Source of the DNA: Escherichia coli
Lineage (GTDB): Bacteria; Pseudomonadota; Gammaproteobacteria; Enterobacterales; Enterobacteriaceae
Assembly: GCF_022846255.1 (NCBI RefSeq)
Contig: NZ_AP025682.1
Strand: one strand, 5' to 3'
DNA length: 64,000 nucleotides
The notes under the pieces are model-generated. The model saw only the letters and a program-made list of their open reading frames with translations. It was not told where the DNA came from and did no database searches. Each line of letters begins with the position of its first letter. Within the stretch, counting starts at the first letter, position 1. The position numbers and the translations under genes are program-made. Below are positions 58,617-62,557 of the stretch, in pieces.

Positions 58617-60608
58617 ATGTCCTCACGTAAAGAGCTTGCCAATGCTATTCGTGCGCTGAGCATGGACGCAGTACAGAAAGCCAAATCCGGTCACCCGGGC
58701 GCCCCGATGGGTATGGCTGACATTGCCGAAGTCCTGTGGCGTGATTTCCTGAAACACAACCCGCAGAATCCGTCCTGGGCTGACCGTGACCGCTTCGTGC
58801 TGTCCAACGGCCACGGCTCCATGCTGATCTACAGCCTGCTGCACCTCACCGGTTACGATCTGCCGATGGAAGAACTGAAAAACTTCCGTCAGCTGCACTC
58901 TAAAACTCCGGGTCACCCGGAAGTGGGTTACACCGCAGGTGTAGAAACCACCACCGGTCCGCTGGGTCAGGGTATTGCCAACGCAGTCGGTATGGCGATT
59001 GCAGAAAAAACGCTGGCGGCGCAGTTTAACCGTCCGGGCCACGACATCGTCGACCACTACACCTACGCCTTCATGGGCGACGGCTGCATGATGGAAGGCA
59101 TCTCCCACGAAGTTTGCTCTCTGGCGGGTACGCTGAAGCTGGGTAAACTGATTGCGTTCTACGATGACAACGGTATTTCTATCGATGGTCACGTTGAAGG
59201 CTGGTTTACCGACGACACCGCAATGCGTTTCGAAGCTTACGGCTGGCACGTTATTCGCGACATCGACGGTCATGACGCGGCATCCATCAAACGCGCAGTA
59301 GAAGAAGCACGCGCAGTGACTGACAAACCGTCCCTGCTGATGTGCAAAACCATCATCGGTTTCGGTTCCCCGAACAAAGCCGGTACCCACGACTCCCACG
59401 GTGCGCCGCTGGGCGACGCTGAAATTGCTCTGACCCGCGAACAGCTGGGCTGGAAATACGCGCCGTTCGAAATCCCGTCTGAAATCTATGCTCAGTGGGA
59501 TGCGAAAGAAGCAGGCCAGGCGAAAGAGTCCGCATGGAACGAGAAATTCGCTGCTTACGCGAAAGCTTATCCGCAGGAAGCCGCTGAATTTACCCGCCGT
59601 ATGAAAGGCGAAATGCCGTCTGACTTCGACGCCAAAGCGAAAGAGTTCATTGCTAAACTTCAGGCTAATCCGGCGAAAATCGCCAGCCGTAAAGCGTCTC
59701 AGAATGCTATCGAAGCGTTCGGTCCGCTGTTGCCGGAATTCCTCGGCGGCTCCGCTGACCTTGCTCCGTCTAACCTGACCCTGTGGTCTGGTTCTAAAGC
59801 AATCAACGAAGATGCTGCAGGTAACTACATCCACTACGGTGTTCGCGAGTTCGGTATGACCGCGATTGCTAACGGTATCTCCCTGCACGGTGGTTTCCTG
59901 CCGTATACCTCAACCTTCCTGATGTTCGTGGAATACGCACGTAATGCCGTACGTATGGCTGCGCTGATGAAACAGCGTCAGGTGATGGTTTACACCCACG
60001 ACTCCATCGGTCTGGGCGAAGATGGCCCGACTCACCAGCCGGTAGAACAGATCGCTTCTCTGCGCGTGACCCCGAACATGTCTACATGGCGTCCGTGTGA
60101 CCAGGTTGAATCCGCAGTAGCGTGGAAATACGGCGTTGAGCGTCAGGACGGCCCGACTGCGCTTATCCTCTCCCGTCAGAACCTGGCGCAGCAGGAACGT
60201 ACTGAAGAGCAGCTGGCAAACATCGCGCGCGGTGGTTATGTGCTGAAAGACTGTGCTGGTCAGCCGGAACTGATCTTCATCGCGACCGGTTCTGAAGTTG
60301 AACTGGCTGTTGCCGCCTACGAAAAACTGACTGCCGAAGGCGTGAAAGCGCGCGTGGTTTCCATGCCGTCTACCGACGCATTCGACAAGCAGGACGCGGC
60401 TTACCGTGAATCCGTACTGCCGAAAGCGGTTACCGCTCGTGTTGCGGTGGAAGCTGGCATTGCTGACTACTGGTACAAGTATGTTGGCCTGAACGGTGCT
60501 ATCGTCGGCATGACCACCTTCGGTGAATCTGCTCCGGCAGAGCAGCTGTTTGAAGAGTTCGGCTTCACCGTTGACAACGTTGTTGCGAAAGCAAAAGCGC
60601 TGCTGTAA
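58617..60608 (+). CDS. tktA: Transketolase 1
   Basis: 663 aa from [41 protein letters not shown]. Confidence 0.96.
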
Positions 60609-60630
60609 TCGGTAAGATGCTTTGTGAGAA

Positions 60631-60828
60631 GGGCCGCAAATGCGGCCCTTCAGATTGTTGGCAAAGTGCGCGTTGTTTATGCCGGATGCGGCGTGAACGC
60701 CTTATCCGTCCTACAAGATTTTGCAAATTCAACATATTGCAGGAAGTATGTAGGCCTGATAAGCGTAGCGCATCAGGCAGTTTTGTCTTTGCTATCAGTC
60801 TCAAGGGCCGCGAAAGCGGCCCTTTTTT
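60631..60828. repeat. tktA terminator hairpin plus REP/BIME cluster and a second terminator-like hairpin
   Basis: GGGCCGCAAATGCGGCCC hairpin, REP units GCCGGATGCGGCGTGAACGCCTTATCCG..., then GGGCCGCGAAAGCGGCCCTTTTTTT. Confidence 0.8.
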
Positions 60829-61736
60829 TACTTAGTAGAGATAAACGGAACTGTGCTGCCGGGGATCATGGTATCGGGCAGTTTACCGTCCCAACGCTCA
60901 GCAGTGGTGAGGGCAACAAGTCCGGGATTCTCCCGCAGAGCTTCACCGCGCAGGCGGATAGCTTCTGCTTCAGCCGCACTTTTTAAACGAATAGTTTCAG
61001 CCTCTGCCGCGCCTCTTACGCGAATAGTTTCCGCTTCTGCTTTGGCTGCCGCTAGTTTACTGTCTGCTTCCGCCTGGGCCTGAGTTACCGCTATTTGCGC
61101 CTGGATTTTCTCCGTTTCCAGATTTTGCTTACGCGTGGCAATGGCGACTTCTGCTTTCATTCGGTCTTCAATCGACTTTTCATAAGCGTCAGAAAAATCA
61201 ATATTTTCAATCTGGACCCCGTCAATTACCACTGGCCCAACAACGGCTTTGCGCATGGCATTTTGCAGATCCTGAACCAGTTTTGTACGATCTTGTACGG
61301 CGCTGATGGCGGTATATTGTCCGAAAACGTTCTCCAGTTGAGTTGGCAACTGACGGACAATCAGACGATCTTTTAATGCTTCAATGGTGTTGTAGGTGGT
61401 ATAAACCGCGCCTGCTTCTGAAGGTTTAATGTGGAAGCTGACTGATACTGTCATTTGTGCCGGTTGCTGGTCGCGGCTGTAGGCCTGTAATCCCTGATAG
61501 ACCACAGCCTGATTACGCGTGGAAATTTTCTCTACGCTTTCCATAAAAGGGATCTTAAAACCCAGCCCCGGCTCGGCAACTTTTACGATTTTTCCGTAGC
61601 GCAGCAAAATGCCGCGTTCACCTTCATTAACGGTGTAATACGAGAGAAATGGCAGCACAACCACGGCAAGCACGCCAATGGCGATAGCAAGAGATTTTTG
61701 TGGGCGAAATGAGGTTAATGAAACAGGTGCTTTCAT
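60828..61736 (-). CDS. SPFH/band-7 (stomatin/prohibitin-like) membrane protein with C-terminal Ala/Glu-rich repeat, strain-variable gene between tktA and cmtB
   Basis: 302 aa; N-terminal TM helix, SPFH-domain body, C-terminal tandem AEAETIRVRGA / AEAETIRLKSA / AEAEAIRLRGE repeats encoded by a DNA tandem repeat. Confidence 0.75.
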   Translation of the reverse strand: MKAPVSLTSFRPQKSLAIAIGVLAVVVLPFLSYYTVNEGERGILLRYGKIVKVAEPGLGFKIPFMESVEKISTRNQAVVYQGLQAYSRDQQPAQMTVSVSFHIKPSEAGAVYTTYNTIEALKDRLIVRQLPTQLENVFGQYTAISAVQDRTKLVQDLQNAMRKAVVGPVVIDGVQIENIDFSDAYEKSIEDRMKAEVAIATRKQNLETEKIQAQIAVTQAQAEADSKLAAAKAEAETIRVRGAAEAETIRLKSAAEAEAIRLRGEALRENPGLVALTTAERWDGKLPDTMIPGSTVPFISTK

Positions 61737-62113
61737 ATGAATCTTCCTTGAGTAAAGTATAGGAATATGTCACATGGGGTGATGAGAAAACAGACAACAG
61801 CCGATAATTCAGAATTTATAAAGGGGATGAGCGAAAAAATAATAAACGTAATAAGTATGTTTTCGAACATTCAATAAGAAAATAGAGATGTGTATCACAA
61901 ATATAGTGATGAATAATTTGTTGATTTTGTAGTTTACTTAACAGATTTATAATTGACTTTTTAAAAGCTTATTTCATGTTGTTGTTATTTAATATTTTGT
62001 TATTTTTGCTCGTGGAGTTTCTCCTTTCATGTGTCCAATTGCTTTCGTTAATTTGTACGCGTATTTTATTTTTACCGCCGGACGGTACCCTAAAAATAAA
62101 ATAAGGATAATTT

Positions 62114-62557
62114 ATGCGGCTTATTGATTATTTTCCAGAGTCATCAATCTCAGTTATACATTCAGCAAAAGATTGGCAGGAAGCTATCGATTTCTCGATG
62201 GTATCATTGCTGGATAAAAACTATATCAGCGAGAATTACATTCAGGCAATTAAAGGTTCCACCATCAGCAATGGTCCTTATTATATTCTCGCACCAGGCG
62301 TGGCAATGCCTCATGCGCGACCGGAATGTGGAGCGCTTAAAACCGGGATGTCTTTGACGTTACTTAAACAAGGCGTTTATTTTCCGGGGAATGACGAACC
62401 GATTAAATTACTCATCGGACTTTCTGCTGCCGATGCCGATTCGCACATTGGTGCTATTCAGGCGTTAAGTGAATTACTGTGCGAAGAAGAAATACTCGAA
62501 CAACTCTTAACCGTATCATCAGAAAAACAATTAGCGGACATTATCAGCCGCGGATAA
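62114..62557 (+). CDS. cmtB: PTS mannitol-type cryptic EIIA component
   Basis: 147 aa, MRLIDYFPESSISVIHSAKDWQEAIDFSMV...; PTS EIIA type 2 with active-site His. Confidence 0.92.
   Translation: MRLIDYFPESSISVIHSAKDWQEAIDFSMVSLLDKNYISENYIQAIKGSTISNGPYYILAPGVAMPHARPECGALKTGMSLTLLKQGVYFPGNDEPIKLLIGLSAADADSHIGAIQALSELLCEEEILEQLLTVSSEKQLADIISRG

Follow-up and report, generated by a model that had tools for sequence, protein, structure and literature searches.

Escherichia coli carries hflKC. The HflC and HflK proteins belong to the SPFH3 subfamily of the SPFH superfamily, with cryo-EM structures 7vhp, 7wi3 and 9cz1, and have been described as periplasm-facing (PMC2636767). The prokaryotic prohibitins make up another subfamily, SPFH4, encoded by solo genes for proteins of ~280–300 residues; in their 2009 survey Hinderhofer et al. 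(PMC2636767) found no NfeD partner for SPFH3 or SPFH4, reported that proteins of these two subfamilies rarely coexist in one genome, and listed no bacterial SPFH4 member that had been studied. QmcA–YbbJ (SPFH1 with NfeD; 8z5g) and YqiK/flotillin (SPFH2) are cage-forming proteins of the same superfamily; QmcA faces the cytoplasm, and both QmcA and YqiK/flotillin need an NfeD partner. Phages also encode SPFH proteins, and these copies have been described as poorly understood (PMC7760394).

Here we describe an SPFH gene located between tktA and cmtB in a 64,000-nucleotide stretch of the E. coli contig NZ_AP025682.1 (hereafter the window), for which HflC and HflK are the best matches in both sequence and fold. 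The likeness extends to the order of the parts (N-terminal transmembrane segment, SPFH domain, long helix, tail) and to a predicted periplasmic orientation; however the protein is only ~22% identical to HflC/HflK, under the equivalog cut-offs, it has no counterpart of the long N-terminus that HflK places in the cytoplasm, and its gene stands singly between tktA and cmtB rather than in an hflK–hflC pair. As in SPFH4, we found a solo gene of that size class, free of NfeD, whose product combines a transmembrane segment, an SPFH domain and a coiled coil, but this one would coexist with HflK/C, whose genes lie outside the window, and be a rare exception by the survey of Hinderhofer et al. (PMC2636767).

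The SPFH gene and its upstream region

The tktA stop codon ends at position 60,608 and the cmtB start codon lies at 62,114, and within the interval between them (60,609–62,113) there is a single real open reading frame, at 60,828–61,736 on the minus strand (stop codon included), supported by the ORF list, Pfam, the RefSeq annotation and dN/dS. It encodes a protein of 302 residues with a predicted mass of ~33 kDa, and in matching genomes the RefSeq product name is 'prohibitin family protein'. Its dN/dS was 0.024 against E. albertii and 0.019 against Kluyvera; strong purifying selection acts on this gene. Thus far it is intact and annotated already, yet unstudied: our literature searches on the gene, on the E. 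coli 'prohibitin family protein', on SPFH proteins in conjugation and on phage SPFH proteins yielded no study of function, in agreement with a sequence-only reading of this DNA that had called the function uncharacterised. When searched with the PADLOC-DB models, the protein matched 0 families at E ≤ 1.

A Shine-Dalgarno sequence read from the DNA, AAGGAAG (61,743–61,749, minus strand), lies 6 nt 5′ of the ATG and is kept in E. coli and E. albertii and partly in Kluyvera. Further upstream, an alignment revealed a block conserved from Escherichia to Kluyvera that holds TGACATATT (61,764–61,772, minus strand), possibly an extended −10 element. Both sites fall within the AT-rich region (61,737–62,113; 29% GC) that separates the SPFH gene from cmtB and that, from its composition and the upstream alignment, may be a divergent control region. 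A generic scan for sigma-70 promoters and terminators returned no more sites than did shuffled sequence, its only useful result being the hairpin at 60,803–60,824, and an Rfam search over the AT-rich region upstream of the gene gave no match.

Protein architecture and fold

The sequence-only reading had proposed an SPFH/band-7 membrane protein, and a profile search confirmed this, with a Pfam Band_7 (PF01145) match (E = 5.6e-32, 111.6 bits) that covered model positions 2–176 of 176 and residues 35–210 of the protein (61,107–61,634, minus strand). The AlphaFold2 (AF2) monomer (mean pLDDT 83) consists of a transmembrane helix (residues 12–32), an alpha/beta SPFH domain (33–181, pLDDT about 90) and a long helix (183–269), with the last 25 residues unstructured and of low pLDDT. 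The first of these (codons 12–32; 61,641–61,703, minus strand), a hydrophobic helix that corroborates the N-terminal transmembrane segment claimed earlier, has the features of a signal anchor: residues 1–15 include three K/R and no D/E, and the N-terminal segment aligns with the transmembrane segment and first strand of HflC. In two relatives, P0080 (LSGC) and P0059 (FLSC), a lipoprotein box lies at the end of the transmembrane segment, exactly at the start of the SPFH domain, and several phage copies carry the annotation lipoprotein.

The long helix is continuous over 87 residues (codons 183–269; 60,930–61,190, minus strand) in the AF2 model and would be expected to form the wall of an SPFH cage. 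Its hydrophobicity autocorrelation peaks at lags of 11 (0.38) and 22 (0.32) residues, and together the model and this 11-residue periodicity give the arrangement typical of the SPFH superfamily, an N-terminal anchor followed by a coiled-coil helix. Beyond it, an alignment of homologues revealed a conserved C-terminal tail, AERWDGKLPxTMxP..PF (codons 279–302; 60,831–60,902, minus strand), in which W282, G284, L286, P287, P292 and P297 are invariant among 50 homologues; from the analogy to HflK/C this tail may cap an oligomer.

Relation to known SPFH proteins

The top Foldseek matches were to HflC (7vhq_G, 1.2e-17), human prohibitin (8rrh, 1.3e-15) and erlin, with further matches to stomatin, QmcA and flotillin. 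A profile of the family searched against the PDB likewise scored highest with HflC (1.5e-19), followed by HflK (4e-12), the prohibitins (3e-11 to 1e-7) and QmcA (1e-6); the prohibitin match at 3e-11 extended over the full length. Eukaryotic PHB1/PHB2 (8rrh, 9o9z) are thereby among the nearest known proteins. These matches place the protein in the HflC/HflK–prohibitin branch of the superfamily. At the same time it scored well below the NCBIfam cut-offs for the equivalogs HflC (TIGR01932, 59.9 bits against 134.4), HflK (TIGR01933, 37.4 against 159.4) and FloT (17.5 against 700), as well as that of NF008259 (53 against 427), which, together with the distant QmcA match, upholds the earlier view that it is distinct from HflK, HflC, QmcA and YqiK. 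As the HflC and HflK cut-offs were failed, it cannot be assumed that the protein shares the partner of HflK/C.

We collected homologs as 253 representative clusters at E ≤ 1e-30, of which the best 150 mostly aligned end to end at 270–320 residues. In the chromosomal, plasmid and phage contexts examined there was neither a second SPFH gene beside a homolog nor an NfeD gene or other conserved neighbor, and the NfeD Pfam family was absent from the called neighbors of the homologs. Clustering of the ORFs within ~3 kb of 80 loci yielded no neighbor cluster that spanned genera, only the gene itself, antisense shadow ORFs and within-genus neighbors.

Relatives with 45–72% identity occur in phage early regions and conjugative transfer operons, and the E. 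coli protein matched phrog_200 with an E-value of 6e-63. The phage proteins (GAP32 gp025, g012 of Yersinia phage fHe-Yen9-04, that of Serratia phage BF, and the 'band 7 protein' of Escherichia phage Skarpretter) were 45–53% identical over ~90% of the length and have the same architecture; they differ in being encoded in the early or replication regions of phages, jumbo phages and Skarpretter among them, and in that several are annotated as lipoproteins. Other full-length relatives were located in an F-like tra operon, between a TraB-like (Pfam TrbI) gene and traV, just upstream of a VirB1-like gene in an IncX-like operon, and in an ICE-like island, and still other plasmid copies were placed among unrelated genes. 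A candidate stand-alone C-terminal fragment on phage-plasmids was rejected, as it proved to be a full-length, divergent SPFH gene of 275 residues.

Distribution and two haplotypes at the locus

We found the SPFH gene in 1830 of 5426 complete E. coli genomes, including the type strain ATCC 11775, the O25:H4 strain CU568-3 and the O83:H1 strain NRG 857C, while 3595 of the 5426 had the 235-bp spacer of K-12 in its place; the tktA–cmtB locus therefore exists as two haplotypes. Almost all of the E. coli copies (1818/1830) covered at least 80% of the gene and 12 fell below this; a few genomes have the gene truncated or interrupted by an IS element, and one cluster, P0015, is frameshifted. As the sequence-only reading had supposed, K-12-like genomes do not carry the gene at this site. 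The haplotype-specific segment is 1427 bp (60,609–62,035), and the only part of the interval alignable to K-12 is 62,036–62,113 (92%), the remainder scoring no better than shuffles. The K-12 state is not an empty site; it is a replacement by an unrelated 235-bp segment. When we sought a remnant of the gene there by comparing the distal 235 bp of the K-12 spacer with the interval, the score was 26, within the range of the shuffles (mean 21.8, maximum 33).

Among species representatives of Salmonella, Citrobacter and E. fergusonii we found no close copy. The occurrence of the gene across the Enterobacteriaceae is patchy, so that to call it ancestral requires either that it was lost several times or that recombination ran through the conserved flank on the tktA side.

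Terminators and REP block

Directly 3′ of the SPFH stop codon is a GC-rich hairpin terminator (60,803–60,824), found by the terminator scan, and a second copy with 91% identity follows tktA (60,629–60,650; repeat family D4, inverted repeat I1, and alignment). In E. coli CM2 and Kluyvera one hairpin, the counterpart of the copy beside the SPFH gene, serves both tktA and the SPFH gene. Between the two copies lies a REP/BIME block (60,651–60,802) of two palindromic units in opposite orientation, which bears out the REP cluster that had been noted beside the gene: Rfam ES036 matched at 60,715–60,757 above its gathering score (50 against 37.6 bits), and naRNA4 matched weakly (32 bits). All Rfam matches in the tktA–cmtB interval were to such REP-derived families. 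The median number of occurrences of the REP-block sequence in an E. coli genome is 29; the block is missing in E. coli CM2 and Kluyvera, and in strain 23AR0806 it contains an inserted IS1397.

An internal repeat in the long helix

Within the long helix the gene has three in-frame units of 33 bp (60,942–61,040, minus strand; repeat families D2 and D3), which encode, in order, AEAETIRVRGA (61,008–61,040), AEAETIRLKSA (60,975–61,007) and AEAEAIRLRGE (60,942–60,974). The AEAE(T/A)IR repeats proposed for the C-terminal part are thus present, but their period is 33 bp (11 residues) and not the 36–39 bp that had been estimated, a figure that probably came from a lone 39-bp spacing in repeat family D3. 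The DNA identities among the units are 79, 67 and 58%, and Tandem Repeats Finder, run on 60,500–62,200 with a minimum score of 30, called no array in the gene. All 59 full-length E. coli copies sampled (93.7–99.9% identity) were exactly 909 bp. Two units are the state in other genera, and there are rare shorter alleles: one from E. albertii, present in two samples, is 22 residues short, and that of P0011 is 11 short. The three-unit form is common to E. coli, E. albertii and E. whittamii, and has therefore been stable since these species split. The extra 11-residue unit of Escherichia would extend the wall helix by three turns (~16 Å) and leave its register unchanged; it may be regarded as a fixed structural feature rather than a switch.

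Alternative explanations

Two thirds of E. coli genomes are without the gene, it adjoins a REP block of a kind that attracts IS1397, and its relatives reside on phages, plasmids and an ICE-like island, all of which could suggest a recent horizontal insertion into the tktA–cmtB spacer, as the sequence-only reading had it. This we now consider very unlikely and largely refuted: E. albertii and E. whittamii have the gene at the identical site and in the same direction, and in Pseudocitrobacter, Kluyvera and one further lineage it lies next to tktA and converges with it; its GC content (49.3%) is that of the window as a whole (48.6%); measured against E. albertii, its dS (0.72) is similar in magnitude to those of cmtA, cmtB and loiP (0.46–0.53); and its alleles within E. 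coli differ by up to 6%. We found no integrase, transposase or direct repeats bounding the haplotype segment, and none of the mobility genes, bounding repeats, atypical composition or absence from sister species that mark a recently acquired islet, and both the shared terminator with tktA in Kluyvera and CM2 and the occupied K-12 site speak against it as well. On these comparisons the gene appears to be an old resident of the locus and not a fresh insertion, and K-12-type strains would have lost it when this segment was replaced. That so many strains do without it, and that some copies are incomplete, IS-interrupted or, in P0015, frameshifted, might instead be taken for the decay of a non-functional remnant, a reading that is barely credible and is already refuted by the selection signature (dN/dS ~0.02), with which the intact frame, the constant length in all sampled copies and the conserved ribosome-binding site and upstream blocks are consistent. 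The repeat had also raised the prospect of a contingency element, in which slippage would change the number of units and so switch or tune the protein between strains. Tandem, in-frame units, together with the natural alleles shorter by one or two of them and the two-unit form in other genera, fit such an element, but we judge it extremely unlikely: a slippage-prone tandem repeat has near-identical units and a copy number that varies among close strains, and here we observed units of just 58–79% identity and a single length in 59 of 59 E. coli copies, with the three-unit form persisting across three species. The copy number does differ, over longer time scales.

Turning to the role of the protein, a cytoplasm-facing scaffold like stomatin and QmcA, or like flotillin, with its NfeD partner encoded elsewhere, would share the superfamily architecture and would account for the additional Foldseek matches to those proteins. 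We think it quite unlikely, however, because HflC, HflK and prohibitin were matched more strongly, the FloT score was far below its cut-off, export is indicated by how the charges are distributed and by the relatives with a lipobox, no homolog examined had an NfeD gene beside it, and Hinderhofer et al. (PMC2636767) describe the SPFH3 and SPFH4 subfamilies as lacking that partner. Somewhat different is the idea that the gene was domesticated from a mobile element and that its actual task has to do with invading DNA or with machines that span the envelope, such as phage or plasmid entry exclusion, or the protection of the inner membrane during the assembly of a T4SS or phage apparatus. The full-length relatives (45–72%) in phage early regions, the tra operon, the IncX-like operon and the ICE-like island, as well as the strong phrog_200 match, agree with this; yet the Escherichia copy lies outside any island and is without partner genes, other plasmid copies sit among unrelated genes, PADLOC gave no match, and in the literature we searched no experiment assigns such a role, the phage copies being poorly understood (PMC7760394). 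We regard domestication as unlikely.

Proposed role

The explanation we favor, and consider probable, is that of a stand-alone, vertically inherited inner-membrane SPFH gene of the HflC/HflK–prohibitin branch whose product would form a periplasmic cage. By analogy, the protein most likely acts as a homo-oligomeric SPFH cage that sits on the inner membrane and faces the periplasm. As in HflK/C, the N-terminus would be cytoplasmic and the bulk of the protein periplasmic, and contacts through the long helices and the C-terminal tails would link many copies into a homo-oligomer, a closed dome that would cover the inner membrane from its periplasmic side. Such a dome could fence off a patch of membrane together with its proteins and modulate their stability or proteolysis; if HflK/C and the mitochondrial prohibitins are taken as analogues, FtsH is the obvious candidate for its client. 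More tentatively, and with limited confidence, we speculate that in B2-type E. coli this is a fifth, periplasm-facing SPFH cage, the chromosomal representative of the phage and plasmid family, that shields or remodels the inner membrane, or modulates FtsH, upon a breach of the envelope or the assembly of a trans-envelope machine.

Significance

The practical value of these findings is modest and there is no hint of a new kind of system, but they mark the tktA–cmtB junction as a clean two-haplotype locus and offer an easy E. coli model for an unstudied, prohibitin-like branch of bacterial proteins and its phage and plasmid relatives. Since SPFH3 and SPFH4 proteins rarely coexist in one genome (Hinderhofer et al., PMC2636767), the protein should not simply be presumed redundant with HflK/C. 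One complete E. coli genome in three carries this fifth SPFH gene, and K-12 deletion studies of SPFH redundancy are therefore not directly transferable to the strains that carry it. If the reading as a fifth cage is true, it would provide a tractable model for the bacterial 'prohibitins', none of which, by the account of the 2009 survey, had yet been studied, and the usual count of four SPFH proteins in E. coli would be specific to K-12.

An SPFH gene in the tktA-cmtB interval

The tktA stop codon and the cmtB start codon bound an interval of exactly 60609-62113 in the window, and a sequence-only reading was essentially right that an SPFH gene is present there. The 302-aa ORF on the minus strand (60828-61736), preceded by an AAGGAAG ribosome-binding site, is a real gene; residues 35-210 of its product match Pfam Band_7 (E 5.6e-32), which bears out the family assignment of that reading, and RefSeq names the same protein in matching genomes 'prohibitin family protein'. 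The protein sequence is under strong constraint, with dN/dS values of 0.024 in comparison with E. albertii and 0.019 with Kluyvera. In the same E. albertii comparison (locus L003) cmtB (62114-62557) gave 0.159, well above its neighbors cmtA (0.025), tktA (0.014) and the SPFH gene. Two antisense ORFs inside the gene (60853-61083, plus strand, 76 aa; 61095-61376, plus strand, 93 aa) recur at the same position across many distant loci and are interpreted as a shadow of the conserved sense frame rather than as genes.

On the tktA side (60609-60827) lie two GC-rich hairpin copies (60629-60650 and 60803-60824, 91% identical to each other) around a REP/BIME block; on the cmtB side is a divergent control region of 29% GC (61737-62113). 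Two minus-strand blocks of the latter (61764-61772 and ~61800-61815) are kept from Escherichia to Kluyvera (alignment A5), one of them TGACATATT, a candidate extended -10 element, and the other ATAAATTCTGAATT, a candidate regulator site; the remainder of this AT-rich region is unconserved over the same range. Around the REP block (60629-60824) the two terminator hairpin copies, each extended by ~16 bases, form an inverted repeat (38-nt arms, 79% complementary). E. coli CM2 and Kluyvera show a single hairpin without the block, which is present in E. albertii and E41-1. Either it came in together with a duplicated hairpin, or recombination between the two copies removed it. In the closest matching genome, E. 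coli 23AR0806, an IS1397-family element lies in the tktA-SPFH spacer (L025 530-1878) at the position of the window's REP block; insertion there would agree with the targeting of REP palindromic units by IS1397. Strain 14EC033 carries IS1A within the interval.

Two haplotypes and their history

Of 5426 complete E. coli genomes, 1830 match the SPFH gene (1818 of them with at least 80% coverage), including the type strain ATCC 11775, NRG 857C and the O25:H4 strain CU568-3; ATCC 11775, NRG 857C and O25:H4/ST131 strains are members of phylogroup B2. When the interval was compared across genomes, as the sequence-only reading had proposed, its place was found to be taken by a 313-bp spacer in K-12, O157:H7 and most other genomes. 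Of that spacer the last 78 bp alone can be aligned, to 62036-62113 (92%); the remaining 235 bp carry a different tktA terminator and bear no relation to the window. This 235-bp segment (1710-1944 of the K-12-type spacer locus L001, in place of 60609-62035) is present in 3595 genomes, and because the two counts, taken as totals over all genomes, sum to 5425 of 5426, the junction behaves in E. coli as a locus with two clean alternative haplotypes.

The gene had been described as inserted between tktA and cmtB; our comparisons reverse that polarity. E. albertii, E. whittamii and Escherichia sp. MOD1 carry it at this very site, between cmtBA and tktA-loiP. Two Pseudocitrobacter species also have it convergent with tktA, as do Kluyvera (83% identical, followed on the far side by epd-pgk-fbaA) and one further lineage (followed there by alpha-mannosidase genes), and in Kluyvera and E. 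coli CM2 a single hairpin terminator is common to tktA and the SPFH gene. Its dS against E. albertii is 0.72 (0.46-0.53 for cmtB, cmtA and loiP) and its GC content is ordinary (49.3%, against 48.6% for the window). Judged by this shared site, tktA adjacency, terminator, dS and GC, the SPFH haplotype is old, and the gene was most likely lost in K-12-type lineages by replacement of the segment. Species representatives of Salmonella, Citrobacter and E. fergusonii yielded no close copy, which points to several losses, or to recombination across the conserved tktA flank.

Domain structure and a fixed repeat

An AlphaFold2 monomer model built from 50 homologs (mean pLDDT 83) has a transmembrane helix (residues 12-32), an alpha/beta SPFH domain (33-181), a single unbroken helix (183-269) and a short helix (272-279), followed by a C-terminal tail that is unstructured in the model yet highly conserved (W282, G284, L286, P287, P292, P297). 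Foldseek against the PDB placed HflC first (7vhq_G, 1.2e-17), then human prohibitins, erlins and HflK, with stomatin, QmcA and flotillin at lower ranks; a family profile searched against PDB sequences gave HflC (1.5e-19), HflK (4e-12), prohibitin (3e-11, aligned along its full length), QmcA (1e-6) and stomatin (4e-6). All NCBIfam equivalog cut-offs were missed, namely HflC (59.9 bits, cut-off 134.4), HflK (37.4, 159.4) and FloT (17.5, 700), which makes the protein a separate paralog on the HflK/C-prohibitin side of the SPFH superfamily. It fits a class that Hinderhofer et al. 2009 call 'SPFH4, p-prohibitin' and describe as solo genes that lack an NfeD partner, probably periplasm-facing and unstudied in bacteria (PMC2636767).

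The 'AEAETIR' repeat in the long helix, earlier given a period of 36-39 bp, consists of three in-frame 33-bp units (60942-61040) with DNA identities of 79, 67 and 58%, which Tandem Repeats Finder did not report. Helix hydrophobicity peaks at lags 11 (0.38) and 22 (0.32), an 11-residue, three-turn periodicity. There are two units in other genera (protein ~291 aa) and three in E. coli, E. albertii and Shigella; rare shorter alleles lack 11 aa (P0011) or, in E. albertii, 22 aa (P0014, found at the same locus in two independent samples), and since all length differences are multiples of 11 residues the helix register is kept. The suggestion that slippage could vary the repeat number did not hold: all 59 sampled full-length E. 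coli copies are exactly 909 bp, at 93.7-99.9% identity. We therefore reject a slippage switch; the repeat is a fixed structural extension.

Membrane orientation

Residues 1-15 contain three K/R and zero acidic residues, and the anchor and first strand align with their counterparts in HflC, which faces the periplasm (PMC2636767). In several relatives the anchor segment ends in a lipoprotein box right before the SPFH domain (LSGC in P0080, FLSC in P0059), and phage copies are annotated as lipoproteins. Together these features make export of the SPFH domain most likely. A cysteine right before the domain occurs in a subset of homologs (P0080, P0059, P0074, P0086-P0095), several within a lipobox-like motif, so the family seems to use a signal-anchor helix in some members and a lipid anchor in others.

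Wider family and possible role

At E ≤ 1e-30 the full-length family falls into 253 representative clusters, and it is commonly found in Shewanella, Pseudomonas, Cellvibrio, Brucella/Ochrobactrum and Rhizobium. Copies on mobile elements are frequent (123 phage and 73 plasmid records with a match covering at least 80% of the protein). Phage copies, described as poorly understood (PMC7760394), lie in early regions of jumbo phage GAP32 and the replication/early module of phage Skarpretter. Relatives 62-72% identical lie inside conjugative transfer operons (L015 6001-6891, L009 6001-6885): a Kosakonia relative between a TraB-like (Pfam TrbI) gene and traV in an F-like tra operon, and another just upstream of a VirB1-like gene in an IncX-like operon (SLT/VirB1, TrbC and VirB3-4 genes follow) on a Salmonella IncFII-RepA plasmid, with a NusG-like gene also present. 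One relative is in an island that also encodes ArdC, CbtA and a methyltransferase. Hundreds of ~90-130 kb plasmids typed non-mobilizable match only the last ~65 query residues (~49% identity); in the single plasmid examined, E. coli IncY p28Eco12 (L024 2371-3198), the match falls within an SPFH gene of 275 aa that lies upstream of a dnaB-type helicase gene. The 68-position phrog_38808 also matches only the C-terminal tail.

Contexts differ between chromosomes, plasmids and phages, and in those examined we found neither NfeD, the partner sought on the earlier suggestion, nor any other conserved neighbor; when neighboring ORFs of 80 loci from many genera were clustered, none was common beyond a single genus. 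The gene is solo. PADLOC has no model for the protein, and the searched literature gives no function for the gene or its relatives.

Based on the solved HflK/C, prohibitin, QmcA and flotillin assemblies, many copies probably assemble into a dome at the periplasmic surface of the inner membrane, which would enclose a membrane patch and its proteins; the Escherichia-specific third repeat unit would extend the wall helix by ~16 Å. By analogy FtsH would be the most obvious candidate client, an identification we regard as rather unlikely. Though catalogued, the gene is unstudied; its biological interest is ordinary, with a modest gain for studies of E. coli SPFH proteins and of the mobile-element relatives.
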